This document shows, piece by piece, positions 2,960 to 36,869 of a stretch of DNA of 37,390 nucleotides. Both the position numbers and the translations under genes were made by a program. Each line of letters opens with the position of its first letter. Position 1 is the first letter of the stretch. Source of the DNA: Verrucomicrobiota bacterium. Its GTDB lineage: Bacteria > Verrucomicrobiota > Verrucomicrobiia > Limisphaerales > AV2. The stretch spans positions 1-37,390 of the forward strand of contig QHOP01000091.1 of assembly GCA_003219345.1 (NCBI GenBank). The letters are read 5' to 3'. Below the pieces are notes generated by a model. It was given only the letters and a program-made list of their open reading frames with translations, made no database searches and had not been told where the DNA came from.

Positions 2960-2973
2960 AACTGATCTTTGGG

Positions 2974-4575: not shown

Positions 4576-4582
4576 AGGAGGA

Positions 4583-5698: not shown

Positions 5699-5793
5699 AA
5701 TTCAGCGGCAACACGCGGGAGTTCTTTGCCCTGAGCGAACCCGGAGCGTCGAGTGTTTCATCATCTTATTTTGACAACAGAAGCAAAGTTTTG

Positions 5794-16761: not shown

Positions 16762-17646
16762 TTACGCCGCCAGCTTCAATTGTCCGCGAAACTCCGTCGG
16801 CGACTGGCCGAGGATCTTCTTGAAGACGCGATTAAAGTGTGTGAGCGATTGGAACCCCACTTCATAAGCGATTTCGCTGATGCGCAGGTTCGGGTTCAGT
16901 AAAAGGCCTTTGGCTTTTTCGATGCGCACACGCGAAACGTAGTCGGTGAAGTTCACACCGGTTATCTTCTTGAACATCTTGCAGAAGTAAAACGTGCTCG
17001 TATTGACCGCCTTCGCGACCTGGCCGAGCGACAAATCCTCACCCTGGTGTTCACGGATAAATCCCTTTGCCTTCGCGATCACCGGCGGTTCGGCATTTTC
17101 CTGCCGCACAACAATCTGATTGCTCAACATCGAAATATGCTGCGCGAAGATCGCCAGCAACTTCACCATTGCGTCGTGTTCTTGCTTTGATAGCACCCGT
17201 GTATTGAAGAAGGCGGCGCGGAGTTGCGACTCATCTACTTCCACGCCCCATTCACGCGCGAGTTTCAATGTGCGCTGAAATTGCGTTTCGGTGGGTCGCT
17301 TGCGAAAGACCTGGCCAGTTTGCAGATAGCCGATCAGTTTGTCGCCCAGCCGCAGAGGCACGGCAGTGTCGCACAATCCCAACTGGCAGGTGACGGTCTG
17401 CGGTTCGCGAGTGGCAGTCTCGTGGAGTTCTTGTTGGGTTTGCAGGCAGGCGGCGCAGGCACGACTCTTTTGCGCCATAAACGCGCAGAACGGATTTTCC
17501 TTCCGCCGGCCGTGGTGCGGCAACTGCCACGATTCGACGGGCCGCAAGGCGACCGGCAGTCGGGTGGTTTCGCTGAAGGCGCGTTCGTAATCCTGGTAAA
17601 TCTCTGAGTTCGCCAGTGTCTCGGCCAGATTATTTTCGCTGTTCAT
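16762..17646 (-). CDS. AraC-family transcriptional regulator with N-terminal PocR-type sensory domain (copy 1)
   Basis: About 294 aa from the Met at 17646. The Cys-rich PocR-like core is NPFCAFMAQKSRACAACL...TCQLGLCDTAVPLRLGDKLIGYLQTGQV. The C-terminal AraC HTH pair is STFYFCKMFKKITGVNFTDYVSRVRIEKAK...ISEIAYEVGFQSLTHFNRVFKKILGQSPTEFR. Confidence 0.85.
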   Translation of the reverse strand: MNSENNLAETLANSEIYQDYERAFSETTRLPVALRPVESWQLPHHGRRKENPFCAFMAQKSRACAACLQTQQELHETATREPQTVTCQLGLCDTAVPLRLGDKLIGYLQTGQVFRKRPTETQFQRTLKLAREWGVEVDESQLRAAFFNTRVLSKQEHDAMVKLLAIFAQHISMLSNQIVVRQENAEPPVIAKAKGFIREHQGEDLSLGQVAKAVNTSTFYFCKMFKKITGVNFTDYVSRVRIEKAKGLLLNPNLRISEIAYEVGFQSLTHFNRVFKKILGQSPTEFRGQLKLAA

Positions 17647-17822
17647 ATCGATCGCTTTCGTTGTCGTCGCCAAAACCAAATTTGTTCTGGTGAGACCAAT
17701 ATCGGCAAAGCAGCGAAAACTCACAATTGGGGGGCTCCCTGATTGTGCTTGAGGGAAATGAACTAACCTGGCTAAGGAAAATCCTTAGCCGACCGTGCAC
17801 TGGACCCGCGAATGAATACCCA

Positions 17823-18344
17823 TCAGACGCGGCCTTCGGTTCGCAATTCGACCAGATATTTGCGCGCGGATTGCAGCCGCTTGATGACCACTTCGGCCAT
17901 GCGCTTCATCAGTTCATAACCGAGATTGTGGTCTTGCTCGCTATACTCGCGCAGCCAGGTGCCGTAGAAAAAGAGGGCTTTGACTGGCGTTGCCGCGCGC
18001 GCGTCGAAGCGCCAATAATACGGCGGGAACAGCCACGACCAGCCAAGCACGTCACCCGGTCCAATGTTTTGGATGAGCATGTGATCGCGTTCGGGGACTT
18101 CCGCCTCCAGTTCCACACGCCCGCTCCGGATGAGATAAAACCGGTTGGCCGGAGTGCCTTCGCGAAAAATCACTTCGCCTTTCTTGAACTCGGCAAACAT
18201 GGCGCATTCGGTCAGAATTGCCAAATGTTCCGGCGTCATGCCCTGGAGAAACGGATGCTCGGCAACCAATCCTGGCAGTGACGACGCGGTGTTTGTCCCG
18301 GCCTGTTCGACTTCGCGCAACGTCGTATCAGTTGTGGTTTTCAT
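17823..18344 (-). CDS. Stand-alone cyclic-nucleotide-binding (cNMP/Crp-type effector) domain protein
   Basis: 173 aa. It has FKKGEVIFREGTPANRFYLIRSGRVELE and GPGDVLGWSWL. No C-terminal HTH is visible. Confidence 0.8.
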   Translation of the reverse strand: MKTTTDTTLREVEQAGTNTASSLPGLVAEHPFLQGMTPEHLAILTECAMFAEFKKGEVIFREGTPANRFYLIRSGRVELEAEVPERDHMLIQNIGPGDVLGWSWLFPPYYWRFDARAATPVKALFFYGTWLREYSEQDHNLGYELMKRMAEVVIKRLQSARKYLVELRTEGRV

Positions 18345-19621: not shown

Positions 19622-21172
19622 ATGAACATGTTGAAAAGAACCTCGATACACGCCGGCGTTACGGCCTTGGCCGCCGTGTTGCTCGCATTGTCCGCCAGGC
19701 AGTTGTCCGCCGCGGCAAATCAAGCCGCCGCGCCATCCACCGGCGCGAAGCTTGTTGATCCCGACGTTACCGGCGTCGAGACGGCAGTGCTCACGCAGGC
19801 CCCGAATGTGCCGCCGCCGATCACACGAAAAAAGCCCGCCAAGGTCATCGTGACCGTGGAAGTCAGAGAAGTCACGAAGCGCCTGGCCGATGGAGTCGAG
19901 TATGTGTTCTGGACATTCGGCGGCGATGTGCCGGGCAGCTTCATTCGTGTCCGCGAGGGCGACCAGGTGGAATTTCACTTGAACAATCATCAGAACAACA
20001 AGATGCCGCACAACATCGACCTGCACGCGGTCACGGGACCGGGCGGGGGCGCCGCGTCGTCGTTCACCGCCCCGGGGCATTCCTCGCAATTCTCGTTCAA
20101 GGCGCTCAATCCGGGACTCTACCTTTATCACTGCGCGACCGCTCCGGTGGGAATGCACGTCGGCAACGGCATGTATGGTTTGATTCTCGTCGAGCCGAAA
20201 GAAGGTCTGCCACCGGCGGACCGGGAGTATTACGTGATGCAAGGCGAGTTTTACACCACCGGCAAATACGGCGACGAAGGGTTGCAGGGGTTCGACATGA
20301 ACAAGGCCACCGATGAACGACCGACCTACGTTGTCTTCAACGGCGCGGTCGGCTCGCTCGTCGGCGACAAGGCGCTTACCGCAAAAATCGGAGAGAAAAT
20401 TCGTCTGTTCGTCGGCAATGGCGGACCGAACCTCGCTTGCTCGTTCCACGTCATCGGCGAAATCCTCGACACGGTTTATCCGGAGGCCGGCACGCAGCCG
20501 ACGCACAACGTGCAAACGACCGTTATTCCTCCTGGCGGATCGGCGATTGTGGAATTCAAAGTCGAAGTGCCCGGCACGTACATCCTGGTGGATCACGCGT
20601 TGTTTCGCGCGTTCAACAAGGGCGCGCTAGGCATGTTGAGAGTGGATGGTCCGCAAGACCTGCTCGTTTATTCCGGCAAAGAAGTGGACGCCGTGTATCT
20701 CGGCAAAGCGGCGGAGGCGGGTACCGACGCCGAAAAGAAAGTCACGGCGCTGAAGGCGGAGGTTGCGCAGGAAATCAAGAGCAACCCGAAAATTGCCGGG
20801 CTGACGAAAGAAATCCAGATCGAGAAAGGCAAGGGCGTCTATATGCAAACCTGCTTCGTTTGCCACCAGCCCGAAGGCGAGGGTTTGCCCGGCCAGATTC
20901 CGCCGCTGGCCAAGTCTGACTTCCTCGCCAGTCTTGCCAAGGAAGATTACATCCGCGGGGTCTTGCTGGGGCGTAGTGGCCAAATCGTCGTCAACGGCAA
21001 GAGTTACAATGGCGTCATGACGCCGTTGAACTACCTGACGGATGAACAAATCGCCAGTGTGCTGACCTACGTTCGCAGCAGTTGGGGCAACTCCGGCGAC
21101 GCGGTGACGGTGGCGGAAGTCGGCAAATTGCGCAACGAAGTAGGCTCGCCGCCGCCCAATCCATATGAATAG
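19622..21172 (+). CDS. nirK: Copper-containing nitrite reductase NirK with C-terminal class I cytochrome c domain
   Basis: 516 aa with a signal peptide. The type 2 Cu region is [17 protein letters not shown]. The type 1 Cu ligands lie in [20 protein letters not shown]. The C-terminal heme domain has CFVCHQPEG and a distal Met region (NGVMTP). Confidence 0.92.
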
Positions 21173-22049
21173 ACGCGCAATTAAATCCGAAGCGCCGCGT
21201 GGCCGCCAACTGACTTGGAAAAGGCGAAAAGTGAACACTCGAAGGCGCCTTTCCATCACTGCGCTGCTCCTGCTGGCCGGCGGAGCGCTTCAGGGTTTAG
21301 GGCAAAAGCTGCCCGGTCCCGCGTTGTCGGGCAAACCCCCTGTCGGCATGGCTCTGATTTCCGACGGCGTATATCAACCGTTATTTCGCGCGGAAAACGA
21401 TCCGAAGGAAATTCCGGTCTCAGCGGTTTATCTCGATGTGTATCCGGTCACCAACGGCGACTTCATCGAATTCGTCCGTGCGAACCCGCGTTGGCGTCGC
21501 TCGCAAGTGAAACGAATCTTCGCCGATGAATCGTATCTGAAAAATTGGTCGGACGATCTCGACCTTGGCGCGAACGCCTCCGCAAACGCGCCGGTGACTT
21601 TTGTGTCGTGGTTCGCCGCGAAAGCCTACGCGCAATGGAAAGGTAAACGTTTGCCGACCGTGGCCGAATGGGAATACGCTGCGTCTGCGAGCCCCACGCG
21701 GCCCGACGGCGAGAACGACGGCGAATTCAAACGTCAGGTGCTTGAATGGTACTCCACCCCGGCCTCGGCGCAGCTTGCGCCGGTCGGTTCCAGTCACGCG
21801 AATTTCTGGGGAATTCATGACTTGCACGGATTGGTGTGGGAGTGGGTCGCCGATTTCAACACGGCGATGGTGACCGGCGACGCGCGCGGCGACACCGGGC
21901 TGGAACGCGATTTGTTCTGCGGAAGCGGGTCGCAGGGCGTGAAGGACACAGACAATTTCCCCGCCTTCATGCGCTACGGCTTCCGCAGCAGCCTCAAGGC
22001 CGATTACTGCGTTCACAATCTTGGCTTTCGTTGCGCCGAAGATTTATGA
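21165..22049 (+). CDS. nirV: Formylglycine-generating-enzyme (SUMF1) family protein, NirV-like
   Basis: 294 aa. It shows FGE-sulfatase-type motifs ([71 protein letters not shown]). It lies immediately downstream of nirK, as nirV does in Rhodobacter. The start is uncertain: ATG 21165 (8-nt overlap with nirK) or GTG 21231, which precedes a signal-like segment. Confidence 0.8.
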
Positions 22050-22582
22050 AACTGCGCCTGGCCATGTTCTTCGTCGCGCTGGCAGCCACGGGTCTCGCCG
22101 GCTGTGCGACGCACTTGCCCGGCCACGCGGCCAAAACTTCGTGTTGCGCTAAAGCGGAACCGCCGACGCCGTTCACCGACAAATCGCTCTATCAACTCGA
22201 CTCGCTGTGGACGACCGATGAGAATAGGCAAATCAAATTAAGCGAACTGAGCGGGCGCCCGCAGATCGTCGCAATGTTCTTCGCTAACTGCCAGATCGCC
22301 TGCCCGATCATCGTGAACGATATGAAACGCATTGAAGCCGCGTTACCCGCGGACGTGCGCGCACGAGTCGGCGTCGCTCTCGTCTCCTTCGACGGCAAAC
22401 GCGACACGCCCGCCGCGCTGGCTGATTACCGACACACGCGCCACCTGCCGGCGGAACGCTGGACGCTCCTGCGCGGAAGGCCGGACGACGTGCTGGAATT
22501 GGCGGCGTTGCTTGGCATCAAATACAAAGAGGACGCTCGTGGCCAGTTCGCGCACTCGAACGTCATCACCATCCTGAAATAG
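22046..22582 (+). CDS. SCO1/SenC-family thioredoxin-fold copper chaperone (lipoprotein)
   Basis: About 178 aa from the ATG at 22046, which overlaps the nirV stop (ATGA). The lipobox is LAATGLAGC, the CxxxC copper motif is FFANCQIACP, and a conserved His lies in QFAHSNVITIL. Confidence 0.85.
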   Translation: MKLRLAMFFVALAATGLAGCATHLPGHAAKTSCCAKAEPPTPFTDKSLYQLDSLWTTDENRQIKLSELSGRPQIVAMFFANCQIACPIIVNDMKRIEAALPADVRARVGVALVSFDGKRDTPAALADYRHTRHLPAERWTLLRGRPDDVLELAALLGIKYKEDARGQFAHSNVITILK

Positions 22583-22637: not shown

Positions 22638-23543
22638 TCAACCCGTCGCCGCTTGTTTGCGAAATTCCCGCGGTGACACTCCGACCAGGTTCTTGAAGAC
22701 AGGGTTGAAATGCGTGAGCGATTGAAAACCCGCTTCAAAGGCGAGTTCGCTGACACGCACGTTGGGGTCGAGCAACGACTTCTTGGCCCGCTCCAAACGC
22801 ACGCGCGAGAGGTATTCGCTGAATTTGATACCGGTCGCCTTCTTGAACAGTTTGCAGAAGTAGAACGTGCTGAGGTTCAGCGCCCGCGCCGTTTGGCCAA
22901 GGGAAAGGTCCGTGGCGCAATTGGCTTCGATGTAAGCCCTGGCACGCGTGATCAGAGGCGGTTCGGTGCTCCGCGCTTGCACGACGGCATGGTTGCTCAC
23001 GATGGCAAGGTGTTTGGCGAAGATGCCCAGGAGCTTCACTGCGGCGGCGTATTGTTTGTCGGTCAACGACGGCGGTTGCGCCGCCCAGCCTTCGTCCTTC
23101 GCACTCGCTCGGGGCACCCCGCGCGACGCGTCCTTTTTTCGTGAAGCCGCTGCCGGAACCTGGTCCCGGACTCGGCCAACCATTTGCAGGATGCCTACCA
23201 GGTGTCGGCCCAGCGCGAGTGGGATGGCCGCGCCGCAGTGACACGGTTCGCCCGCGACAATCGGTCCCCGGATTGGCAAGTGCATCGCGATTCGTTTCTC
23301 CGTGCGCCGGCAGCACACACAGGAGCATTTTTTTCTTCCGGGCAATCTGCAAAGCGGATTGGACTCGCTGGAAGCGCCGCCCGGCAAAGGCCACGAATCC
23401 GTAGGCCGCAGCTTAATCCCCATACCTGTGAGGTCTTTGAAAGCGCGTCTGTAATCGCGGAAGATTTTGGAACCGAGCAGCGCTCCAATCACCGTATTGC
23501 CTATCGACGGCGGGTTGGAAGGTATGGGCGCAACCGTCTTCAC
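22638..23543 (-). CDS. AraC-family transcriptional regulator with PocR-type sensory domain (copy 2)
   Basis: 301 aa and a paralog of 16762-17646. Motifs are NPLCRLPGRKKCSCVCC...PCHCGAAIPLALGRHLVGILQ and the AraC HTH STFYFCKLFKKATGIKFSEYLSRVRLERAK...VSELAFEAGFQSLTHFNPVFKNLVGVSPREFR. It is divergent from the heme-porin operon. Confidence 0.85.
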   Translation of the reverse strand: MKTVAPIPSNPPSIGNTVIGALLGSKIFRDYRRAFKDLTGMGIKLRPTDSWPLPGGASSESNPLCRLPGRKKCSCVCCRRTEKRIAMHLPIRGPIVAGEPCHCGAAIPLALGRHLVGILQMVGRVRDQVPAAASRKKDASRGVPRASAKDEGWAAQPPSLTDKQYAAAVKLLGIFAKHLAIVSNHAVVQARSTEPPLITRARAYIEANCATDLSLGQTARALNLSTFYFCKLFKKATGIKFSEYLSRVRLERAKKSLLDPNVRVSELAFEAGFQSLTHFNPVFKNLVGVSPREFRKQAATG

Positions 23544-23769: not shown

Positions 23770-23889
23770 AAAAGTTATGAAAAGCCATTCGCAACATCGG
23801 ACCTTCTCCCAAGTGTGTTCGTGTTTTGCCGGGCTGGCTTTTCAGGGTTCCCAAGAAAGCAAGCACTCCAACCAACAGAAGGGACAACA

Positions 23890-25188
23890 ATGAAGAACAC
23901 ACCAAGACTCATGCCGCTTGGCCTGGCTGTGATCACAAGCGCCCTGGCGATGGTGCCGATCAACGGCTGGGCCATCGCCAACTGGGCCAGGAAGTACAAC
24001 GTGGATTGCGCCACGTGTCACTCGCCAGCCGTGCCGCGATTGAATGAGTTCGGACACCAGTTCCGCAAAATGGGCTACCGGATGGATACGGAAATCCAGG
24101 CCGGCAAGCCGGAAGCCTACAAGGAAATTGGGAATTTTCTGTCCGTGCGGTTTCGCACCGGCTACGCGGCCGAGCGTTTCAGCGACCTGCAAACGGCCGG
24201 CAGTGGGTTTAACTCGTTCCGCACCCGCAACGGTTTCAGGGCGCCCGATGTCACTGTGTTTTACTCAGGTGCGTTGACGAAGAATCTGTCGCTGTTTACA
24301 GAAATTGAAGTCGCGGACGTCGATGAAACCGAGCTACAGGTGTTCGGCGAGTGGTTTAGTGGCAACCCGGACCATTACTTCACCGCGCGCATTGGACAAA
24401 TGCACACGTTGTCCCGTATTGGCTGGGCGGGGTTTGATCGTCCGACCGGCATAACCACGCCCGATGCGCTTGCTGCGGCAAAGTTGACCACCAGTCCGGT
24501 GTCGTTCAGCGTTGGCGCAGACCAACGAGGTGTGGATTTGGCTTATTCGTTTACGCCGGAGAGCCGCGCGATTGTCGGCGTTTACAATGGCGTGAACCAG
24601 CAGGGGTCAGGAATTGCGGGCAACGGCGCCGGATTTGGCGACAATGACAACGCCAAAGACGTGCTGGTGGCCTTTGAACAGATGTTAGGTGAATCTGGAT
24701 TCACACTGTTCGGATATTACGGAACGTGGGATCAGGCGGCGGGCACGGTAGTGAACGGAGTTCCTTTGCCAGACAACAACAAGTTCACCGAGTTCAACTT
24801 TCTTCGTGCCGGCGCGACTGCCTCCTGGGTGTTTAACCTGTTTGACCCGAAGACGGTCGGCAGTAGTGAATTGCAAGCGGGCTATATGTTCGCCAAAGAC
24901 TTTTACCCCAAGTCCTATCCGGTCGGCCCTACGTTCAACGGCAAAGACCGGAACGGCCAGGCGTTCTGGATCGGAGTCGAGCAACGTCTGCCGCACAGTT
25001 CAGCGGTGTTCTACCGCTACGATCACGTATCGCGAAGCAACGAGGCCAGTGGGGGTGAACGACAGCGTCATGCCCTTGGAGCGGTTTACACGTATGAACA
25101 ATATCTGAGGCTATCTCTGGAGGGATTCTGCTACGACCAGAACTCCGACTCCTTTGGCGGTCTTCTGCAAGCGATGTTCAATTACTAA
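23890..25188 (+). CDS. Outer-membrane beta-barrel protein with N-terminal monoheme CxxCH motif (fused cytochrome-porin, Cyc2-like architecture)
   Basis: About 432 aa from the ATG at 23890. It has a signal peptide (LGLAVITSALAMVPINGWA) and a single heme motif right after it (WARKYNVDCATCHSPAVPRLNEFGHQFRKMGY). The remaining ~380 aa show alternating, Gly/aromatic-rich beta-strand composition and end in an aromatic residue (LLQAMFNY), as OM barrels do. Confidence 0.7.
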   Translation: MKNTPRLMPLGLAVITSALAMVPINGWAIANWARKYNVDCATCHSPAVPRLNEFGHQFRKMGYRMDTEIQAGKPEAYKEIGNFLSVRFRTGYAAERFSDLQTAGSGFNSFRTRNGFRAPDVTVFYSGALTKNLSLFTEIEVADVDETELQVFGEWFSGNPDHYFTARIGQMHTLSRIGWAGFDRPTGITTPDALAAAKLTTSPVSFSVGADQRGVDLAYSFTPESRAIVGVYNGVNQQGSGIAGNGAGFGDNDNAKDVLVAFEQMLGESGFTLFGYYGTWDQAAGTVVNGVPLPDNNKFTEFNFLRAGATASWVFNLFDPKTVGSSELQAGYMFAKDFYPKSYPVGPTFNGKDRNGQAFWIGVEQRLPHSSAVFYRYDHVSRSNEASGGERQRHALGAVYTYEQYLRLSLEGFCYDQNSDSFGGLLQAMFNY

Positions 25189-25203: not shown

Positions 25204-26331
25204 ATGAAGGCGCACCCCTGTAAAGGACGGGACCTCCTCCTGCGCCGTGCCTTTACAGGGGTGAGGTCTTGGTTGCGAAACGAATTACGAAGGACTCGCG
25301 AATTGAGTCCGACAGCAACCGCATCAACCTTTTGGGCCTCATTAGGAGTTCTGTTTTTTTATTCCACGGGCGTGTTTTCCGCTGTGGCTGAGGATACTGC
25401 ACGGTATCGCTTTGAAGAAGGCGAACCGCTGACGTACAAAACGGAGGTTGGCGTTACCAACGAAAGTCTCGTCGCCACGCGTTTCTATGATCAGTCGGAC
25501 AAGTCCCGCCACAATGAATCACTGGCATTGACCATGAATTACCAACTGATGCCCATCGTGCAGCAGGGAGATGGTCTCTGGAAGATGCGGCTGCTGTTGA
25601 ATCAGGTGGAACAAATTGTCAACCGCGACGGTTATGTCCAGAAGAAGACCCTCGATCGCGCAGCACTTCAAGCGACGAGTTCGAAACCGGGCCTGATACC
25701 TGCCAGAGAAGTCCACGGCCCGGAGGATCTCTTCGACGAACCCCTGCTGGTTTGGATCAAGTCCAATGGCATTCTGCAAAAGTTCGAAGACAGAACCGAA
25801 CTCCAGCAGGTCATACCCGGGATCAACTTGAAAGAATGCATTGAATTGGTGCTGCCGCCGCTGCTGGTTTCAGATTTGCAGGAAGGGACTCAATGGACAC
25901 GAGACGTTCCTGTCGATCTACCGGCGACCCCGATCGAAGGCCATCAACCGGAACCGATGACGCTGAAGCTCGATTATGCTGTTCGAAAGATTGAATCAAT
26001 TGACGGCCGACGTTGCGCCCGGATCGCTTTGAAGGGGCGATTTGTGCGCGATGGTTTGTCGATACCGATTCGACAGGAGGAGATGAAATATTTGATCTGG
26101 ACTACATCTATCACAAGGGTTGCCGATCAGGTGGAAGGGGAGTTTATTTTTGATTTGAGCAAAAGAACTATGCGAACCTCGGAGATAACAAGCGTCTACA
26201 ACTACGCCACCCTGGCGGGCAGAAAGCAGGACAAGTATCGCGGCAGGATTACTTCCGAAAACGAGATTCGAACGCGGCTGGTAAGCAGGCTTGTATCCGA
26301 GCCGATGGCTATTTCTTTCAGCGATGAATGA
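25204..26331 (+). CDS. Hypothetical exported protein, co-oriented directly after the heme-porin
   Basis: 375-aa ORF beginning 16 nt after the porin stop. It has a signal-like hydrophobic segment (FWASLGVLFFYSTGVFSAVA). No motif is recognised and the start is uncertain. Confidence 0.5.
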   Translation: MKAHPCKGRDLLLRRAFTGVRSWLRNELRRTRELSPTATASTFWASLGVLFFYSTGVFSAVAEDTARYRFEEGEPLTYKTEVGVTNESLVATRFYDQSDKSRHNESLALTMNYQLMPIVQQGDGLWKMRLLLNQVEQIVNRDGYVQKKTLDRAALQATSSKPGLIPAREVHGPEDLFDEPLLVWIKSNGILQKFEDRTELQQVIPGINLKECIELVLPPLLVSDLQEGTQWTRDVPVDLPATPIEGHQPEPMTLKLDYAVRKIESIDGRRCARIALKGRFVRDGLSIPIRQEEMKYLIWTTSITRVADQVEGEFIFDLSKRTMRTSEITSVYNYATLAGRKQDKYRGRITSENEIRTRLVSRLVSEPMAISFSDE

Positions 26332-26462: not shown

Positions 26463-26789
26463 ATGAAAAAACCAATCCTGCTCGCGGTCGCCGTGTTCAT
26501 CGCCGCCATGACATCGGGCCGCGCGGCCGACGCCAAAGAAAACTGGGAAAAGAACTGTCTAAAATGCCACGGCGCGGACGGCAAGGGCTACACCAAACTG
26601 GGGAAGAAGGCCGGGGTAAAGGACCTTACCGATCCCAAAGTACAGGCCGGCTTCACCGACGAAAAAGCGTTCAAGGCCATCAAGGAAGGCGTCAAAGACG
26701 GCGACAAAGTAAAGATGATGCCAGCGGAAAAGCTAACCGACGACGAGATTAAAGCGCTCGTAGCATTCGTTCGCGGATTGAAGAAGTGA
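26463..26789 (+). CDS. Small soluble class I c-type cytochrome
   Basis: 108 aa. It has a signal peptide (MKKPILLAVAVFIAAMTSGRAADA), the heme motif CLKCHGADGKG and a Met ligand candidate in KVKMMPA. Confidence 0.85.
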   Translation: MKKPILLAVAVFIAAMTSGRAADAKENWEKNCLKCHGADGKGYTKLGKKAGVKDLTDPKVQAGFTDEKAFKAIKEGVKDGDKVKMMPAEKLTDDEIKALVAFVRGLKK

Positions 26790-26924: not shown

Positions 26925-27395
26925 ATGCCTGAGAACACATCCAACCAGAAATCTACACGCCGAAGTTTTTTGGACCTTGTCCTGGGCGCGAGCAGCGTGG
27001 CTTGCTTGGGAAGCATTTTGTACCCCGTGATTCGCTACCTCAAACCCCTCCCTCGCGCCGGTGGAGTCGGTCCGACTCGCCTGACACCAGAAGAATTGGC
27101 CAAATTGGAGAAGGAACATTTTGTCATTGTCCCGGTGAGCGGCAAGCGGGTTCTGATACTCCAGAACGCCGCTCAGGAAATCCTGGCTGTTGACGCGAAA
27201 TGCACCCATGAAGGTTGCACCGTCCAGTATTTGCCCGGTGAATCAGTCATCTGGTGTGCCTGTCACAATGCTCGATTTGACTTGGACGGCCGCGTATTGT
27301 CCGGACCACCGCCACGGCCCCTTCCGAAGTACGCCGCGGAGCGTCAGGAAGACGGAGGAATTTTGATTGTCGCGGAGAGGAGGCAGAGTGAGTGA
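26925..27395 (+). CDS. Rieske [2Fe-2S] subunit of a cytochrome bc-type complex
   Basis: 156 aa. It has a Tat-type N-terminus (STRRSFLDLVLGASS) and Rieske boxes CTHEGC and CACHNARF. Confidence 0.9.
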   Translation: MPENTSNQKSTRRSFLDLVLGASSVACLGSILYPVIRYLKPLPRAGGVGPTRLTPEELAKLEKEHFVIVPVSGKRVLILQNAAQEILAVDAKCTHEGCTVQYLPGESVIWCACHNARFDLDGRVLSGPPPRPLPKYAAERQEDGGILIVAERRQSE

Positions 27396-28641
27396 TTCCG
27401 GCCACGGCCAAGGATGGCTGGGCTGGCTTGATCGACGTTACCAAATCACGCCCCTCATCGAATTCCTGCGTCACAAGGAGGTGCCTAAAGGGCCGCACTC
27501 GATGGTTTGGTATTACCTCGGCGGGATGACGATGTTCTTTTTCCTGGTCCAAGTCGTTACCGGAGTGCTCCTCTTGATGTACTACCAACCAGGCGAAGCC
27601 ACAGCCTACGAAAGCATTCGCTACCTGACGACCAAGGTGCCTTTTGGTTGGTTGATGCGTTCGGTCCATTGTTGGAGTGCGCACCTGATGATCATCTCGC
27701 TGGTAACGCACATGTTCAGCACGATGATGCTGAAAGCGTACCGTCCGCCGCGCGAGTTGACGTGGGTCACCGGCTACATCCTGTTTGCCCTTACCCTGGG
27801 CTTTGGCTTTTCCGGGTATCTGCTGCCGTGGAACAAGCTGGCCTTTTTCGCGACTTCGGTCGGGACCGACCTCGTCAAGTCGGTGCCACTGATCGGGAAC
27901 TGGCTGTTGCAAGTATTGCGGGGCGGCCCGGATGTGACCGCCAATACCCTGTATCGCTTCTTCGCGCTTCACGTTGTCATTTTGCCGCTGGCGTTTGTGA
28001 GCCTCATTGGCGTTCATCTCTTGTTTGTTCAACGCCAGGGCATGGCCCCGCCCCTTGGCGCCAAAGTCGCGCCTAGGGGAATGAGGTTTTTCCCCAGCTT
28101 TGCGCTGCGAGATCTGCTCTTGTGGTTGGTTTGCTTCATGGTTTTGTTGGTCTTGGCGGTGTTCGTCCCGTATGGTCCGGGAATCCCGGGTATGGACTGG
28201 GAATTGGGCCAGAAAGCTGACCCGTTGGCGCCGGCGTTTCCCGGTATTAAACCGGAGTGGTATTTCTTGTGGGAGTATCAGTTGCTGAAGGAATTTCCCC
28301 CGCACCTGTTTGGCTTGGAAGGGCCGCAATTGTGTTTGCTGGTCGTAAGTCTTCTCCTGGGCATCTGGGCCATCATTCCGTGGCTGGACCGACAAGCGCA
28401 GCGTGAGCAGCCATCGCCCGGCTTCAGTGACTTCGGCTGGGGCGCAATCCTGTTTCTGACGTTCCTGACGCTGAAGGCTTGGGACATTGGCGCTATGGAG
28501 CCTGCCACTTCCGGGTCTTCATTGAAAGTCATATCCCGAACCTGCGCCTGGTGGACCATTGGTGCCGGCGCGGTGATCATTGGAATTCGTTGGCTGCTCC
28601 AGTCATCGCGGCAGTCCTCGCCGCCGTCGGCATCGCGATGA
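27388..28641 (+). CDS. Cytochrome b (fused b6-like N-terminal part plus subunit-IV-like C-terminal part)
   Basis: About 417 aa from the GTG at 27388, with AGGAGG 4 nt upstream and an 8-nt overlap with the Rieske gene; TTG 27367 is the alternative start. The heme ligand pairs are H-x13-H (HCWSAHLMIISLVTH) and H-x14-H (HVVILPLAFVSLIGVH). The Qo-site motif is KPEWYFLWEY. The YYLGG segment has no Cys that would bind heme ci. Confidence 0.9.
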   Translation: MSDSGHGQGWLGWLDRRYQITPLIEFLRHKEVPKGPHSMVWYYLGGMTMFFFLVQVVTGVLLLMYYQPGEATAYESIRYLTTKVPFGWLMRSVHCWSAHLMIISLVTHMFSTMMLKAYRPPRELTWVTGYILFALTLGFGFSGYLLPWNKLAFFATSVGTDLVKSVPLIGNWLLQVLRGGPDVTANTLYRFFALHVVILPLAFVSLIGVHLLFVQRQGMAPPLGAKVAPRGMRFFPSFALRDLLLWLVCFMVLLVLAVFVPYGPGIPGMDWELGQKADPLAPAFPGIKPEWYFLWEYQLLKEFPPHLFGLEGPQLCLLVVSLLLGIWAIIPWLDRQAQREQPSPGFSDFGWGAILFLTFLTLKAWDIGAMEPATSGSSLKVISRTCAWWTIGAGAVIIGIRWLLQSSRQSSPPSASR

Positions 28642-28687: not shown

Positions 28688-30232
28688 ATGAGAATCATTT
28701 CGTCTTTCCTATGCCCGGTCCTGTGCGTCTCCCTGGCAGCCGTTGCGGCGGATGAAAAACCGGGCGTCATTCCCGAAAAGCTGGCAGGATTGTTTGCCGC
28801 ACAAGGGAAGGATGGCAAACCGACAATCACTCCGGAACAGCGAACCTACTTTGACGGGTTGAATGATCGCCTCAAAGCTCTCCTCATCAAGACGGTTGAG
28901 GCGGAGGTCATCACTCGCCCCGAGCATTTGGGGACCATCCTGGCGCTGGGCTTGCGTCCGCAAAAGATGGAGATTCTCTTACAAGACAATTGCATCCTGT
29001 GTCACACGGACCCCGAAGTGCAGAAGCCCGAAACGCTTCTTACTCTTTCTCCGGCGCCGGGCAAAACCCCCTCGCATCTGAATCTGCAGGACTTTGTTGA
29101 TGATGTTCATTTTCTCCGCGGCCTGTCCTGTGCCGGTTGCCACGGTGGGGATCCTGGCAGCGACAAGCTCGAACACTCTTTTGTCAAGGAATGGCCAAGC
29201 GCCGGCCGTGACAAGGATCGTGGTTGGATTCTTTCTTTCTGCGCACGCTGCCATTCCGACTCGACGTTCATGAATCGATTCAATCCCGCGTTGCCTACCG
29301 ACCAGTTGGCGAAGTACAAAGACAGCCCGCACGGAAAGTTCCTGCTGGAAGCCCGAGACGCCCGCGCTCCCGATTGCTTGAGTTGTCACGGTGTCCACGG
29401 CATCCGCAGCGCCAAAAACCCGCTCTCGAAGGTTTACCGCAAGCGGGTCCCGGAAACCTGCGGCGCCTGCCACTCAGATGCCAAGCGGATGGCCGGCCTG
29501 ACTCTGTCCGACGGTTCGCCCATGCCCACCAACCAACTCGCGGAATACCGCGCCAGCGTGCACGGTCGCGCGTTGCTGGAGCGCGGCGATCTGGGCGCGC
29601 CGGCGTGCAACAACTGTCACGGCAACCATGCCGCTATGCCGACTGGCCTGTCGAGCGTGAGCCAGAGCTGCAGTCTCTGCCACGCGGGCAACGCCAGCTT
29701 GTTCGATGGCAGCAAACACAAGCAGGCTTTCGAGGAGCACAAATGGCCCCAGTGCGCGAAGTGCCACGGGAACCATGTCATCGCCAAGACGCACGATTCG
29801 ATGTTAGCCGCCGGGCAGGAATCCTTGTGCAACAAATGTCATCAGCAATACGCCAAGGACAATCCCGAGTGCAACGCAACCGCGACTTACTTTTACACCT
29901 CGCTAGCGCAGATGGACCAGGTCTGGAACGAGTTTGGCGTCACCGCTGATCGATTGGCCATGAAAGGCCTGGACGTGGACCCGATCCACGACAAGTTGAA
30001 CGAATTGGCGGACAGCTTGAAACAGGCTCGTTCTCACATTCACTCATTCAGCAAAAACGACTTCCAGCGAGCCGCCGATCCGGGAGAGAAAGCCGTTCTG
30101 GGCATTTCCAGGTTGGTTGAAGAAGCGAAGGCAGAATATCGGTTCCGGCAACTCGGTTTGGTCACGACCATCGCATTGATGGGATTAGTGATGTTGGCTC
30201 TCTATGTTAAGCTTCGCCGTCTCGAACGTTAA
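28688..30232 (+). CDS. Membrane-anchored nine-heme c-type cytochrome (bc-complex-associated)
   Basis: 514 aa with a signal peptide. There are nine CxxCH motifs: CILCH, CAGCH, CARCH, CLSCH, CGACH, CNNCH, CSLCH, CAKCH and CNKCH. A C-terminal TM helix (LGLVTTIALMGLVMLALYV) is present, and GGGAGG precedes the ATG. Confidence 0.9.
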   Translation: MRIISSFLCPVLCVSLAAVAADEKPGVIPEKLAGLFAAQGKDGKPTITPEQRTYFDGLNDRLKALLIKTVEAEVITRPEHLGTILALGLRPQKMEILLQDNCILCHTDPEVQKPETLLTLSPAPGKTPSHLNLQDFVDDVHFLRGLSCAGCHGGDPGSDKLEHSFVKEWPSAGRDKDRGWILSFCARCHSDSTFMNRFNPALPTDQLAKYKDSPHGKFLLEARDARAPDCLSCHGVHGIRSAKNPLSKVYRKRVPETCGACHSDAKRMAGLTLSDGSPMPTNQLAEYRASVHGRALLERGDLGAPACNNCHGNHAAMPTGLSSVSQSCSLCHAGNASLFDGSKHKQAFEEHKWPQCAKCHGNHVIAKTHDSMLAAGQESLCNKCHQQYAKDNPECNATATYFYTSLAQMDQVWNEFGVTADRLAMKGLDVDPIHDKLNELADSLKQARSHIHSFSKNDFQRAADPGEKAVLGISRLVEEAKAEYRFRQLGLVTTIALMGLVMLALYVKLRRLER

Positions 30233-30736: not shown

Positions 30737-31114
30737 ATGAAGTACCGACAAATTAAAGCTACTAAAAATATGAACCGACCCAGCTCCTTGAAATCACGTC
30801 TGTGGACCGGCGCCAGCGTCGCGGTGCTTGGAGCGCTCCTTTACGCTCTGTCCAGCGTTTTCGTTCCCGGCGCAGGTGCCAAAGCGGAAAAGAAAACAGA
30901 AAAAAGGGTCGAGAAAAAGCCGGAGAAGAAAAAGCTCAGCGGAGCGGAGCTGTATTCGATGCATTGTAACAGGTGCCACCCCGAACGTTATCCAACGGAG
31001 AGGACCGCGGCGCAATGGAAAACCATCCTGCTCCACATGCGCGTGCGGGCGAACCTTCCTGCCGAACAGTCGCAGATGATCCTCAAATACCTGCAGGACA
31101 ACAGCGGACGATAA
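30737..31114 (+). CDS. Membrane-anchored monoheme c-type cytochrome
   Basis: 125 aa (alternative Met at codon 12). It has an N-terminal TM/signal anchor (LWTGASVAVLGALLYALSSVFV), a Lys/Glu-rich linker (KAEKKTEKRVEKKPEKKK) and a single heme motif CNRCHPERYP followed by WKTILLHMRVRANL. Confidence 0.8.
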   Translation: MKYRQIKATKNMNRPSSLKSRLWTGASVAVLGALLYALSSVFVPGAGAKAEKKTEKRVEKKPEKKKLSGAELYSMHCNRCHPERYPTERTAAQWKTILLHMRVRANLPAEQSQMILKYLQDNSGR

Positions 31115-31150
31115 GCGGCTGAACCCGGATAAAATGGCAAAAACGTTAGC

Positions 31151-32530
31151 ATGAAAACACGTTCCTTCGCGTTGGGATGCGCGTGCATATGCTGTGCGCT
31201 AGTGGTTCCGCTACCGGTCGGGACAGCGGCCGCTATCGACGACCAGCAGTTCAACGAATTGAAAGACCTAGTCACCAAACTAGGCCAGAAAATCGAAACA
31301 CAGGACCAACGGATCGAGCAACTGGAAAAAACACATGCGCAAGATGCGCAGGTCCACGCGCAAGATCAGAAGACTCATGAACAGGACCAGCAGAAAATCC
31401 AGGAACTGCAGCAAAAGCTGGGAGAAACACAACAAGCAGTCTCGAACGTCCAAACGGCGGCGATAGCGGTCCCAGTGGAACCGCTGCCTCGGGTGCCGCT
31501 GGACGAGGCCACCGTCAACCATAACTTCTCCATTCTCGGTGATGCTGAGTTTCAATACGCCAAGACCTCGGGCCAGCATGGGACATTTTTGTTCGCGGAT
31601 TTTGCGCCCATTTTCCTATATCGGGGCGGAGAGAAGGTCCTGTTCGAGGCCGGTTTCGATTTTGGTTTGCAGAATAACGCTCCGAACAGTCCCGGGGCCA
31701 CTACGACCATCAATCTAAGCTTCGCCCAATTGGATTACCTGATGAACGATTATGTGACATTGGTGGCGGGAGACATGGTGCTGCCTCTCGGCACTTATAG
31801 CGAGCGGACCGCGGGCTGGTTGAACAAAATTCCTGATGATCCATTGCCTCGCGACCTGCTGCCAGGTGCGGGCGTGGGGGCGCAGTTACGAGGGGCTGTT
31901 CCGCTGGGCGAGAGCGGAAAGTTAATCAACTATTCCGTGTGGGGTGTGAATGGGGCAAGCTCGGCGGATGGCACCGGCAATGCCGATCAACTGGATTTGG
32001 GTGGGAACGTGGGCCTGCGGTCGGACAATGCGGTGGCCAATTTGCACGGCAAACCGAGCGGCGGCGCGCGCGTGGGGTGGTTTATGCCTTTCAAGCCCCA
32101 CTACGATCTGGAACTGGGCCTTTCGGGTCAATCGGGGGAATGGGATAACGCGGGACAGCATCTGTGGTCCGCGGGCGTGCTGGACGCCAGCCTGCACCTG
32201 GGATCGACCGTTGAGGTCAAGGGCGAATATATCCGCAGTTGCTATGGAAGCGACGATCACGGGAACGTCCGACCCGAGGGATGGTGGTTGCAGGCCAGCT
32301 ATAAGCTCGTTGGATTAAATCTGGATTGGCCGGTTATCAATAACCTGGAACTGGTGAACCGGTATGACAGTATCCACGATGGCCTGGGCACTCGGACCCG
32401 GCGGTATACTCTGGGCTATATCTACTATTTTTCGAATACGCTGCTGTTCGAAGGAGGTTATGAATTTCTCCACAGCAATGATCCAACTCAGAAAGACCAG
32501 TTGATTTTCCAACTTTCCTATGGGTTTTGA
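31151..32530 (+). CDS. Outer-membrane porin with N-terminal coiled coil (phosphate-selective porin O/P-like organisation)
   Basis: 459 aa with a signal peptide. It has a Gln/His-rich heptad coiled coil (LEKTHAQDAQVHAQDQKTHEQDQQKIQELQQKL) followed by a beta-strand-rich region. It ends in the barrel terminal signature LIFQLSYGF. Confidence 0.7.
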   Translation: MKTRSFALGCACICCALVVPLPVGTAAAIDDQQFNELKDLVTKLGQKIETQDQRIEQLEKTHAQDAQVHAQDQKTHEQDQQKIQELQQKLGETQQAVSNVQTAAIAVPVEPLPRVPLDEATVNHNFSILGDAEFQYAKTSGQHGTFLFADFAPIFLYRGGEKVLFEAGFDFGLQNNAPNSPGATTTINLSFAQLDYLMNDYVTLVAGDMVLPLGTYSERTAGWLNKIPDDPLPRDLLPGAGVGAQLRGAVPLGESGKLINYSVWGVNGASSADGTGNADQLDLGGNVGLRSDNAVANLHGKPSGGARVGWFMPFKPHYDLELGLSGQSGEWDNAGQHLWSAGVLDASLHLGSTVEVKGEYIRSCYGSDDHGNVRPEGWWLQASYKLVGLNLDWPVINNLELVNRYDSIHDGLGTRTRRYTLGYIYYFSNTLLFEGGYEFLHSNDPTQKDQLIFQLSYGF

Positions 32531-33389
32531 AGCCTTCATGTTGAAAATCGAACCTGATTATTACCAACATACTATGCCCACATGCATATTCCATAACAGC
32601 AAGCGGTCGCGTTTAATCCGAGCCTGTCTCCTGGCCACGCTCGCGTGCCTATCCAGCACTTGGGCTTTGGCGCAGAGCGCCTCCGCAACGACGGAATCAA
32701 CGAATCAAGCGCCAACTTACCTACGGGACGTATTGCCTATCATCATGGGAAAGTGCTCCAGATGCCATAACGAGCAAGCGCGGTTTGTTTACAATTGGCT
32801 GGATTACCGGACGGCCTATGCAGATCGCTGGGAGATCAGAAGACGGTTGTGGGACAGTTGGAAGGGGACTTATTTCAAGGAATCAATGCCGATCGCGAAT
32901 AGTCCTGAATCATTGGCGATCACCGATGAGGAACGGTTAACGATCCGGAATTGGGTGGCTGCCGGTGCGCTTCGTGGTGTTACTCCGCCGCCAGGCGCGC
33001 CAAAATCCAAAGCTGAGAAAATTGAGCTTGGCAGGCGTCTGTTTACTTCCATCTGCGCAGCTTGTCATCAGCCGACGGGCCAGGGACTCCCGAACGTATT
33101 TCCACCTCTGGCCAGCTCGGATTTTCTAAATGCGGACAAGAACAGAGCGATAAAAATTGTAATCAATGGCCGGCAGGGAGAGCTGATTGTCAATGGAAGA
33201 AAATTCAACAATAGCATGCCTCAGTTTCCACTTAGCGATGACGATATCGCCAACGCCCTGACCTTCGTTTACAACTCATTCGGAAACGCGGGACTTGAGG
33301 TCAAACCGGAAGAAGTCAAATTCCTTCGCACCCAGCCGCCCGATCCAGAAGGACCAAGAGGCATCCCTCAGAAGAGCCCATACGAGTGA
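32520..33389 (+). CDS. Diheme c-type cytochrome (N-terminal PVC-type heme domain plus C-terminal class I domain)
   Basis: 289-aa ORF; the start is uncertain (Mets at 32520, 32538 and 32574, the last preceding a signal peptide LLATLACLSSTWALA). The heme motifs are GKCSRCHNEQ and ICAACHQPTGQGLP. The C-terminal domain is clearly similar to the NirK C-terminal heme domain. Confidence 0.8.
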   Translation: MGFEAFMLKIEPDYYQHTMPTCIFHNSKRSRLIRACLLATLACLSSTWALAQSASATTESTNQAPTYLRDVLPIIMGKCSRCHNEQARFVYNWLDYRTAYADRWEIRRRLWDSWKGTYFKESMPIANSPESLAITDEERLTIRNWVAAGALRGVTPPPGAPKSKAEKIELGRRLFTSICAACHQPTGQGLPNVFPPLASSDFLNADKNRAIKIVINGRQGELIVNGRKFNNSMPQFPLSDDDIANALTFVYNSFGNAGLEVKPEEVKFLRTQPPDPEGPRGIPQKSPYE

Positions 33390-35624: not shown

Positions 35625-36191
35625 TTAGTTTCCGATAAACTCGTGTTCCTGCTCGCGCACGACGAGTACCGGACATGTTGCGCGGCGGATAACATTTTCA
35701 GCCACGCTCCCCATGAAGACATGTTTCAAGCCCGTGCGACCGTGCGTGGAGATAATGATGAGGTCGCTCTCCAGCTTTTTGGCGCAATCAACGATCTCCA
35801 CTACTTCCTGACCGATCCGGACGAGCGTCTGGGCGACGGCCTGTTGTTGAATTTCTGTCGCCGCGAGCTGACCGAGTTGCTTTTCCGCGCTTTTCCGCAA
35901 ATCGGCTTCGATGAGCGGAAAGTCTATAGCGCCGAACTCCGGGCCGGCAGAGTAGTTGACATGCACGACGTGCAACAGCGTGATTGTTGCGCCGAACTGT
36001 TTGGCGAACGGAACGGCGTATCGCAGCGCCTTTTTCGAGCAGTCCGAAAAGTCAATCGGCACCAGAATGTCTTTCAAGCTAAACGGAGTCGGTTTGTTGT
36101 AGGTGTTCTGGCTGGTGCCAAGGATGGACTCGTCCTTGCGATTCAGCTCGACGATTACCTGGCCGCGTTTAGTTGCAGGTTTGATTTTCAT
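35625..36191 (-). CDS. Universal stress protein (UspA family), copy 1
   Basis: About 188 aa from the Met at 36191. Motifs are ILVPIDFSDCSKKALRYAVPFAKQFGATITLLHVV, IIISTHGRTGLKHVFMGSVAENVIRRATCPVLVV and a C-terminal REQEHEF. The ATG overlaps the upstream USP stop (ATGA). Confidence 0.85.
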   Translation of the reverse strand: MKIKPATKRGQVIVELNRKDESILGTSQNTYNKPTPFSLKDILVPIDFSDCSKKALRYAVPFAKQFGATITLLHVVHVNYSAGPEFGAIDFPLIEADLRKSAEKQLGQLAATEIQQQAVAQTLVRIGQEVVEIVDCAKKLESDLIIISTHGRTGLKHVFMGSVAENVIRRATCPVLVVREQEHEFIGN

Positions 36192-36838: not shown

Positions 36839-36869
36839 ATTCGCCACCTGACTTGGGAGCGTTTCTGTG

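Follow-up and report, generated by a model that had tools for sequence, protein, structure and literature searches.

We have studied a gene of a Verrucomicrobiota bacterium (GenBank assembly GCA_003219345.1) found in contig QHOP01000091.1, which was analysed over 37,390 nucleotides (the window). It codes for a protein of 432 amino acids which is almost certainly a true member of the Cyc2 family: a short cytochrome segment with a single heme motif is fused to a predicted outer-membrane porin. An earlier note on this DNA had described a fused cytochrome-porin with Cyc2-like architecture and had left open whether it is a homologue of Cyc2 or a convergent protein. The architecture is borne out by a variant of the signature motif, by hmmsearch and hhalign matches and by a predicted barrel of 16 strands. 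As to its origin, the defining features of Cyc2, the profile-profile matches and the 16-strand porin fold argue for true homology. The protein probably transfers electrons across the outer membrane, in connection with the adjacent respiratory genes.

The system as such is of a known kind: the Cyc2 family is large and well described, and its occurrence in metagenome-assembled genomes (MAGs) of Verrucomicrobia had already been reported (PMC6344600). The novelty is modest but concrete: a divergent subfamily in the Planctomycetes-Verrucomicrobia-Chlamydiae (PVC) phyla with a WAR variant of the signature, a conserved loop, an uncharacterised partner gene and a recurrent link with Rieske/cytochrome b genes.

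Relationship with Cyc2

Cyc2 proteins have been defined by a signal peptide, one CxxCH motif, a length of at least 365 amino acids and a 16-strand porin (Keffer et al. 2021, PMC8406198). Two motifs flank the heme site: AxPxFAR[Q/K][T/Y] upstream, described as "unique to Cyc2" and as varying among clusters, and PxL four residues downstream of CxxCH (PMC8406198). The window protein is longer than the published minimum. Its full open reading frame spans 23815..25188 (+), and the ATG at 23890 is the likely start: M1 is aligned in all 31 homologues and a Shine-Dalgarno-like site precedes it (Table 1). An alternative GTG start at 23815 was dropped for the same reasons. The Sec signal peptide was recognised by inspection: basic residues K2 and R6, a hydrophobic stretch at 9–22 and a G-W-A cleavage-type motif at 26–28. 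It aligns across the 31 homologues, and AlphaFold2 predicts a helix at residues 7–20. With this cleavage site C40 is residue 12 of the mature protein; the earlier note was right in placing a CATCH motif after the site, but gave the distance as about 15 residues.

There is exactly one CxxCH motif (C40-A-T-C-H44), as the note had claimed, and the only other cysteine is residue 414. In the 31 aligned homologues R34, Y36, C40, C43, H44, P46, P49, R50 and L51 are invariant. The three heme-motif residues are unchanged in homologues down to 31% identity, so that the motif is not a chance occurrence in a porin. The heme would be attached at C40/C43. Conservation suggests H172 (28/31), M171 (23/31) and M429 (28/31) as candidate distal ligands.

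The upstream motif agrees with the published consensus in five of its seven specified positions. The two changes, P to A and F to W, read as conservative substitutions; the family consensus in our alignment is AIPAWARKY...CxxCH-xPxx-PRL. Three residues separate the motif from the first cysteine, as in the Cyc2 of Acidithiobacillus and of Zetaproteobacteria. Downstream, PxL is found four residues past the histidine (H44-S-P-A-V-P49-R-L51), a spacing equal to that of the Cyc2(PV-1) heme peptide and of 20 out of 24 Zetaproteobacteria sequences.

The rest of the protein is predicted to form a barrel, as expected from the beta-strand-type region ending in an aromatic residue which the note had described. 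The barrel prediction that it proposed as a check was made with AlphaFold2 on the family alignment (mean predicted local distance difference test score, pLDDT, 79; predicted template modelling score, pTM, 0.79). DSSP finds 16 long beta-strands in this model, in residues 83–431, and the heme motif is carried by a short helical N-terminal segment. The C-terminus is ...QAMFNY; its last residue is aromatic in 31 of 31 homologues. In a Foldseek search of the PDB the best matches are the 16-strand trimeric porins PorB, OmpT and Omp32 (E 1e-11 to 1e-9), with OprP (2o4v) at rank 7. The porin matches have a target-normalised template modelling (TM) score of 0.54–0.69 and a sequence identity of 9–14%. 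OprO/OprP is also the template reported for the Cyc2 barrel (PMC8406198). These porins share the barrel fold of the window protein, but they have no heme domain. Membership in the phosphate-selective OprO/OprP porins was ruled out, given the absence of a family match and the presence of the heme motif: the likeness is at the level of fold only. The protein is presumed to lie in the outer membrane.

An outer-membrane barrel and a c-type cytochrome also move electrons across the outer membrane in MtrAB, MtoAB and PioAB. In such porin-cytochrome complexes the two components are separate proteins, and the cytochrome, which is deca- or multiheme, is inserted in a porin of larger size. The window protein differs from them: it is one polypeptide with one heme and 16 strands. 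We found no Pfam or NCBIfam match to families of the MtrB/MtoB/PioB type. Membership in this type (heme-free, more than 20 strands) is ruled out by the 16 strands and the fused monoheme segment.

Library scans gave no Pfam or NCBIfam family for the cytochrome-porin (in Pfam none at E<=0.01, porin families included), and PDB sequence searches with the protein and with its family profile gave nothing meaningful. Reference Cyc2 sequences were therefore gathered in two ways. For Acidithiobacillus, a rusticyanin sequence was verified against the PDB and then used to fetch rus operons. The first gene of each operon is Cyc2: it has 484–531 amino acids, one CxxCH and 'ALPSFARQTGWSCAACHTSYPQL'. For Zetaproteobacteria, a search was seeded with the mass-spectrometry peptides of Cyc2(PV-1) given in Table S1 of PMC8406198. 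It yielded 145 proteins of the Zetaproteobacteria type, which include those of the cultured iron oxidisers Mariprofundus ferrinatatus CP-8, M. aestuarium and M. micogutta. The Cyc2(PV-1) protein itself was not recovered (the best match is 53% identical), and its Mariprofundus relatives stand in for it, among them CP-8, a Cluster 1 member in Fig. S7 of PMC8406198.

The hmmsearch tests used a profile built solely from the family of the window protein. Six Acidithiobacillus Cyc2 from rus operons score 37–45 bits (E 2e-16 to 3e-14 each; for a database of 1.84 billion proteins this would amount to about 4e-7 to 5e-5); as a control, two di-heme proteins of the same loci score about -2 bits. The 120 Zetaproteobacteria Cyc2 listed have a median score of 42.5 bits and a maximum of 55. 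In profile-profile comparison with hhalign the window family matches Acidithiobacillus Cyc2 with a probability of 98.1% (E 1e-13, 178 columns) and Cluster 1 Cyc2 of Zetaproteobacteria with 98.5% (E 2.9e-15, 110 columns). The control, Acidithiobacillus against Zetaproteobacteria Cyc2, gives 97.9% (E 3.2e-13, 124 columns). Since these E values are comparable, the window clade is as demonstrably related to each validated Cyc2 as these are to each other.

Two rival readings, a heme-porin of independent origin which converged on Cyc2 and an ordinary porin whose CxxCH is due to chance, would also agree with the lack of Pfam, NCBIfam and PDB sequence matches, with the low overall identity to validated Cyc2 and with the failure of the strict pattern PxFAR[Q/K][T/Y]. 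On the other hand, CxxCH and its flanks are invariant in the 31 homologues, the matches to two validated Cyc2 lineages are as strong as those between these lineages, and a clade with the canonical MPxFARKY motif is matched over the full length (E 1.5e-69). We consider convergence refuted by the profile and profile-profile matches, unless the alignments are artefactual, and give it hardly any weight. Accepted Cyc2 clusters themselves have pairwise identities of about 15–23% (PMC8406198).

The likeness is different for each lineage. Cyc2(PV-1) of Mariprofundus ferrooxydans, taken here together with Cluster 1 (Zetaproteobacteria, Gallionellaceae), is a neutrophilic Fe(II) oxidase (PMC8406198). 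Cluster 1 proteins share with the window protein the signal peptide, the single N-terminal CxxCH, a form of the motif A-x-P-x-aromatic-A-R-[QK]-[TY] three residues before the first cysteine and a length of about 400–430 amino acids with a 16-strand barrel. The PV-1 peptide CLSCH-FQTF-PAL-NAFGR compares with CATCH-SPAV-PRL-NEFGH in the window: PxL follows after exactly four residues in both. However the overall identity is about 16% and only about 110 N-terminal columns align significantly. The window protein has Trp for Phe, Ala for Pro and K-Y rather than Q-T; it also has a GFDRP loop which Cluster 1 lacks. Cluster 1 proteins end in ...EALL/M instead of an aromatic residue, and the cyc2 gene of CP-8 stands alone, whereas the window gene is found in a bc-complex cluster.

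The Cyc2 of Acidithiobacillus ferrooxidans is the founding member of the family and the first gene of the rus operon. In Acidithiobacillus Cyc2, too, a monoheme segment is fused to a porin; the protein has ALPSFARQTGWSCAACH...PQL and ends in an aromatic residue. Both genes head electron-transfer operons: cyc2, cyc1, cox and rus in Acidithiobacillus; cyc2-like, cytochrome c and bc complex in the window. They differ in the length of the protein (484–531 amino acids, with a longer barrel), in the three residues between His and PxL, in sequence (about 14% identity) and in the acid pH at which Acidithiobacillus Cyc2 works. The partners in the Acidithiobacillus operon are an aa3 oxidase and rusticyanin; in the window we find a Rieske/cytochrome b complex. 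Plasmid-borne loci of the rus type, with rusticyanin and an upstream cyc2, are present in Acidithiobacillus ferruginosus CF3 (NZ_CP130948.1, plasmid of 51 kilobases (kb), locus L007) and A. ferrianus MG (NZ_CP127524.1, 62 kb, L010); A. ferrianus also has a chromosomal copy of rusticyanin (L021).

A divergent subfamily

A word-indexed search found 58 clusters of close homologues, all of them annotated as hypothetical. Named close relatives come from MAGs of Verrucomicrobia (74% identity), Lentisphaerae and Omnitrophica. The mean identity of the window protein within its own clade is 48%. An exhaustive profile search reaches much further, with 3,315 representatives at E<=1e-3 and 1,022 at E<=1e-10. 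The distant representatives, among the matches listed, have about 400 amino acids and the canonical motif MPxFARKYxxxCxxCHxxxP[KR]LN; they are held by MAGs of Ignavibacteria, Acidobacteria, Bacteroidota and Nitrospirae. Ten distant matches which we looked up are MAG 'hypothetical proteins' (Ignavibacteria, Bdellovibrio, Nitrospirae), none of them from a cultured iron oxidiser. A profile search with the outgroup alignment (A2) returned solely MAG proteins.

The nearest outgroup is this clade of Ignavibacteria, Acidobacteria and Bacteroidota MAGs. The homology is full-length and includes the barrel: hhalign gives E 1.5e-69 over 373 columns. Rough identities of the window protein decrease from 22.9% with this clade to 15.8% with Cluster 1 Zetaproteobacteria and 14.2% with Acidithiobacillus. 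The outgroup differs from the window protein by a canonical MPxFARKY, with Phe instead of Trp, by three residues before PxL and by the loop, GYGASDRP against GWAGFDRP. In the one context of this clade which was examined, the gene stands alone.

Several features mark the subfamily. In the upstream motif Trp replaces Phe in 54 of the 66 members. Four residues separate His from PxL, like in Cluster 1, against three in Acidithiobacillus and in the outgroup. A conserved loop between strands 5 and 6 has the consensus R-x-G-Q-M-H-T-L-x-R-x-G-W-A-G-F-D-R-P-T-G-I, with R167, G169, G181, F182, D183, R184 and P185 invariant. GF[DE]RP is present in just 60 of 168 full-length superfamily hits; judging by the alignments this loop is a mark of the subfamily, and its role is presumptive. 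Two of the candidate distal ligands, M171 and H172, lie within it.

The published Cyc2 tree contains 1,593 sequences and was built with the strict screen PxFAR[Q/K][T/Y] (PMC8406198). Only 4 of our 66 members pass this screen and 62 fail, for which reason the subfamily is probably under-represented in that tree.

Gene cluster in the window and in related genomes

The cytochrome-porin gene heads a co-directional cluster, in which it is followed by the genes of a 375-amino acid partner protein, a cytochrome c of 108 amino acids, a Rieske protein, a cytochrome b and a nine-heme cytochrome (Table 1). The first three gaps have 15, 131 and 135 nucleotides (nt); the cytochrome b gene overlaps the Rieske gene, and the nine-heme gene begins 46 nt after it. 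The earlier note had correctly given the soluble cytochrome c, the order Rieske, cytochrome b and nine-heme protein, and a nearby nirK, but it overlooked the 375-amino acid gene. Its assignment of the Rieske and cytochrome b genes is confirmed by Pfam and NCBIfam, and we count nine CxxCH in the multiheme protein, as it had stated. This protein has a C-terminal hydrophobic anchor and takes the place of cytochrome c1/f. The 108-amino acid cytochrome c is a candidate shuttle.

Table 1. Positions of the features described in the window, and of partner genes at related loci
Feature	Locus	Position	Strand	Evidence
Cyc2-family fused monoheme cytochrome-porin gene (432 amino acids)	window	23890..25188	+	open reading frame, homologues, Cyc2 homology, barrel model
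Shine-Dalgarno-like GAAGGGA	window	23878..23884	+	sequence read; 5 nt 5' of ATG 23890
Putative signal peptide, residues 1-28 (MKNTPRLMPLGLAVITSALAMVPINGWA)	window	23890..23973	+	inspection, AlphaFold2 helix, homologue alignment
Cyc2 signature, residues 28-51 (A-I-A-N-W-A-R-K-Y-NVD-C-A-T-C-H-SPAV-P-R-L)	window	23971..24042	+	conservation, published motif
CxxCH within heme domain	window	24007-24021	+	sequence
Predicted 16-strand beta-barrel porin domain, residues 83-431	window	24136..25182	+	DSSP on AlphaFold2 model, Foldseek
Conserved loop, strands 5-6, residues 167-188 (R-I-G-Q-M-H-T-L-S-R-I-G-W-A-G-F-D-R-P-T-G-I)	window	24388..24453	+	alignment
Conserved partner gene, 375 amino acids, no heme motif, no known family	window	25204..26331	+	orthologues at relatives' loci
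Periplasmic monoheme class I cytochrome c, 108 amino acids	window	26463..26789	+	Pfam Cytochrom_C, Cytochrome_CBB3; one CxxCH
Rieske [2Fe-2S] subunit	window	26925..27395	+	Pfam Rieske E 1e-12; NCBIfam PetC-like
Cytochrome b, fused b6 + subunit IV type	window	27367..28641	+	Pfam Cytochrome_B E 5e-51, Cytochrom_B_C
Nine-heme c-type cytochrome	window	28688..30232	+	nine CxxCH; Pfam Cytochrome_C7, Paired_CXXCH_1
PocR-sensor/AraC-type regulator, divergent from cytochrome-porin gene	window	22638..23543	-	Pfam HTH_18, HTH_AraC, PocR
Copper nitrite reductase NirK with C-terminal cytochrome c domain	window	19622..21172	+	NCBIfam TIGR02376 354.6 bits, above cut-off
125-amino acid monoheme cytochrome c (unfused trio)	window	30737-31114		
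459-amino acid heme-free porin-like protein, N-terminal coiled coil (unfused trio)	window	31151-32530		
289-amino acid di-heme cytochrome (unfused trio)	window	32520-33389		11-nt overlap with porin-like gene
Partner gene	L001	11316-12428		
Partner gene	L003	3503-4636		
Partner gene	L004	11236-12423		
Partner gene	L030	9388-10479		
Partner gene	L028	1793-2791		

The nirK gene lies 2.7 kb upstream of the cytochrome-porin gene, outside the operon. Its product has one CxxCH, at residue 411, and this NirK-cytochrome c fusion is a possible electron sink. It is followed by a gene of the FGE-sulfatase family (NirV-like, with an 8-nt overlap) and by an open reading frame for a SCO1/SenC copper chaperone-like protein: together the genes of region 19622–22582 make up a compact cluster for nitrite-reductase maturation, next to the Cyc2 operon. 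A second regulator of the PocR-sensor/AraC type is found at 16762–17724.

We compared ten contexts of the subfamily: the window and loci L001, L003–L006 and L027–L030. In four of them (window, L004, L005 and L029) a Rieske/cytochrome b complex directly adjoins the Cyc2-like gene; L029 holds the most divergent member, with 29% identity (31% in alignment A1). A c-type cytochrome gene lies at most two genes away in seven contexts out of ten. In L028 an aa3 cytochrome oxidase operon is found about 2.3 kb downstream of the Cyc2-like gene, with a PocR/AraC gene (5327–6283) in between; this linkage recalls the cyc2-cyc1-cox-rus operon of A. ferrooxidans. In L027 the Cyc2-like gene is followed by a cytochrome c and a pyrroloquinoline quinone (PQQ) beta-propeller protein, and in L001 and L030 it is adjoined only by the gene of the non-heme partner. 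In L004 (1–9753, homologue P0016) two different Rieske/cytochrome b gene sets flank the Cyc2-like gene, one with a cytochrome b-c fusion; in the other cytochrome b is split, and a multiheme protein of no fewer than 1,144 amino acids is encoded.

In two control loci, that of the Cluster 1 cyc2 of M. ferrinatatus CP-8 and that of an outgroup member, the gene is solitary, with neither Rieske/cytochrome b genes nor cytochrome genes recognisable with Pfam beside it. The enrichment of Rieske/cytochrome b neighbours in the subfamily is suggestive rather than proven, as the sample is small (10 contexts and 2 controls).

The partner gene adjoins the Cyc2-like gene in six of the ten contexts. In the five closest loci (window, L001, L003, L004 and L030) its orthologues are 41–50% identical and directly downstream; in L028 a homologue with 29% identity is directly upstream. 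These proteins have about 330–395 amino acids, with a long basic N-terminus and then a hydrophobic stretch. No match to the partner protein was found in Pfam, NCBIfam or the PDB (in Pfam and the PDB also with six orthologues), and a structure model from the single sequence is unusable (pLDDT 34.6). For this Cyc2 subfamily it may serve as a structural partner or as a chaperone.

Proposed function and other features of the window

Our analysis points to the cytochrome-porin as most likely the outer-membrane end of a path which runs via the 108-amino acid cytochrome c to the Rieske/cytochrome b/nine-heme complex of the inner membrane. The protein would be exported by the Sec system and receive its heme at C40/C43, with a monoheme segment of about 40 residues fused to the 16-strand porin. 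The heme would lie in the barrel or at its mouth, so that electrons would be exchanged one by one, across the outer membrane, between the periplasm and a small soluble redox species outside the cell. In our working model dissolved Fe(II) would be oxidised at the Cyc2 heme and the electron would then pass to the periplasmic cytochrome c. A downhill branch would lead from there to a terminal reductase or oxidase, for which the NirK-cytochrome c fusion is a candidate; in an uphill branch the Rieske/cytochrome b complex would run in reverse and reduce quinone. The substrate, the direction of electron flow and the role of the partner protein we infer. For Fe(II) oxidation as such, with electrons moving inward, the case is evenly balanced; a Cyc2-family protein within this working model is the overall explanation which we slightly favour.

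Inward flow is favoured by the biochemistry of tested Cyc2 proteins, by the oxidase linkage of L028 and by a precedent in Candidatus Ferristratum. Fe(II) oxidation in vitro has been shown for three Cyc2 proteins, which belong to three clusters (PMC8406198). In these established members the one heme of a small porin takes part in electron exchange with dissolved iron in the pore, in contrast to multiheme conduits, which can touch solids (PMC8406198). In Candidatus Ferristratum the expression of cyc2 rose along with narG upon addition of Fe(II) (PMC8406198), a response which parallels the nirK neighbourhood in the window.

The electrons might also flow outward, from (mena)quinol through the Rieske/cytochrome b/nine-heme complex, the 108-amino acid cytochrome c and the Cyc2-like porin to a soluble acceptor outside the cell, for instance chelated Fe(III) or humic quinones. 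One gene string in the window provides the whole route between the quinol pool and the outer membrane, and Rieske/cytochrome b complexes normally run from quinol to cytochrome c. The adjacency of such genes in four out of ten contexts, and its absence at the Cluster 1 cyc2 of M. ferrinatatus and at the outgroup member, point in the same direction. Moreover Cyc2B with Cyc1 isoforms has been implicated in Fe(III) reduction in acidithiobacilli (PMC10715153), and homologues of Cyc2 have been reported from taxa that reduce Fe(III), as well as from Verrucomicrobia living in an anoxic humic bog (PMC6344600). Genes of the Crp/Fnr type and of universal stress proteins also flank several loci. Against outward flow stand the three biochemically tested Cyc2 proteins, all assayed as Fe(II) oxidases. 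In L028 an aa3 cytochrome c oxidase operon follows the Cyc2-like gene at about 2.3 kb, which suggests flow inward to O2. Besides, a single heme near +200 mV, as measured for PV-1 (PMC8406198), is ill-suited to the reduction of most Fe(III) minerals. We regard outward flow as a doubtful but real alternative. The Crp/Fnr-type (cNMP-binding, i.e. cyclic nucleotide monophosphate) and universal stress protein genes recur in the window (17823–18344 and 35625–36922), in L005 and in L006.

Other redox substrates would be, for example, Mn(II), reduced humics or sulfur and nitrogen species; the protein could also be a redox sensor or a heme-plugged diffusion channel. Cyc2 has been proposed for Mn(II) oxidation in Candidatus Manganitrophus, and Nitrospirales which oxidise nitrite or ammonia also have homologues (PMC9040806); those who defined the family consider additional functions possible (PMC8406198). 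The PQQ beta-propeller protein which follows the cytochrome c in L027 and the two loci with only the non-heme partner (L001 and L030) would agree with such roles. On the other hand there is no positive evidence for any specific alternative, and the recurrent linkage with a c-type cytochrome and a bc-type complex argues for respiratory electron flow. We find these roles unlikely.

Several points weigh against a Cyc2 protein which oxidises Fe(II) in this organism. The overall identity to validated Cyc2 is just 14–16%, only the N-terminal 110–180 residues or so align significantly with them, and the window protein fails the strict pattern PxFAR[Q/K][T/Y]. The authors of the Cyc2 study themselves warn that the function of distant homologues is uncertain (PMC8406198). 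The normal direction of a bc complex fits outward flow at least as well as inward flow. Co-transcription of the cluster is presumed from strand and spacing, since the promoter and terminator scans are uninformative (a single promoter-like site where 4.7 are expected, and 19 terminator-like sites where 14.4 +/- 4.4 are expected). Finally, the window has no carbon-fixation genes and no terminal oxidase, and thus nothing in it points to lithotrophy.

We suggest with much reserve that the GFDRP/Trp subfamily is a functionally distinct PVC branch of Cyc2, hard-wired genetically to a Rieske/cytochrome b/multiheme complex and to a non-heme partner not recognised before: a path from quinone to the outside, or the reverse, in a single operon. 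If so, Verrucomicrobia, Lentisphaerae and Omnitrophica would take a part, so far overlooked, in the redox cycling of iron or humics, such as nitrite-linked Fe(II) oxidation through the neighbouring NirK, and the branch would have been largely left out of the published Cyc2 phylogeny, as so few members pass its motif filter.

No genetic marker of microbial Fe(II) oxidation is in wider use than Cyc2, but confidence in this marker decreases with the distance from the three tested proteins. The locus documents a divergent subfamily in phyla without cultured iron oxidisers, which fails the strict screen of the reference phylogeny due to a conservative change from FAR to WAR. Its gene context gives a concrete, testable prediction of the route by which an outer-membrane heme would be connected with respiration. 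For the question of what distant Cyc2 homologues do (oxidation of iron, reduction of extracellular acceptors or another function), the locus is a useful target.

The remaining observations concern other parts of the window. Just downstream of the cluster, at 30737–33389, there is an unfused cytochrome/porin trio (Table 1), which could be a second, split cytochrome/porin module. Its porin-like protein as an unfused relative of the Cyc2 barrel is unsupported: the hhalign probability is only 48%. Open reading frames of 100–380 amino acids which are antisense to or overlap other genes are also present, such as 27247–28395 (-), with 382 amino acids opposite cytochrome b. None of them is supported by a family match; rather than genes, they look like a side effect of base composition. 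At the other end of the window, a secretion or pilus cluster is found at 1640–7551: a T2SSF platform protein (1640–2959) is followed by three T2SSE-family ATPases (2974–4575, 4583–5698 and 5794–7551), and a protein with a prepilin-type N-methylation motif lies at 8865–9653.

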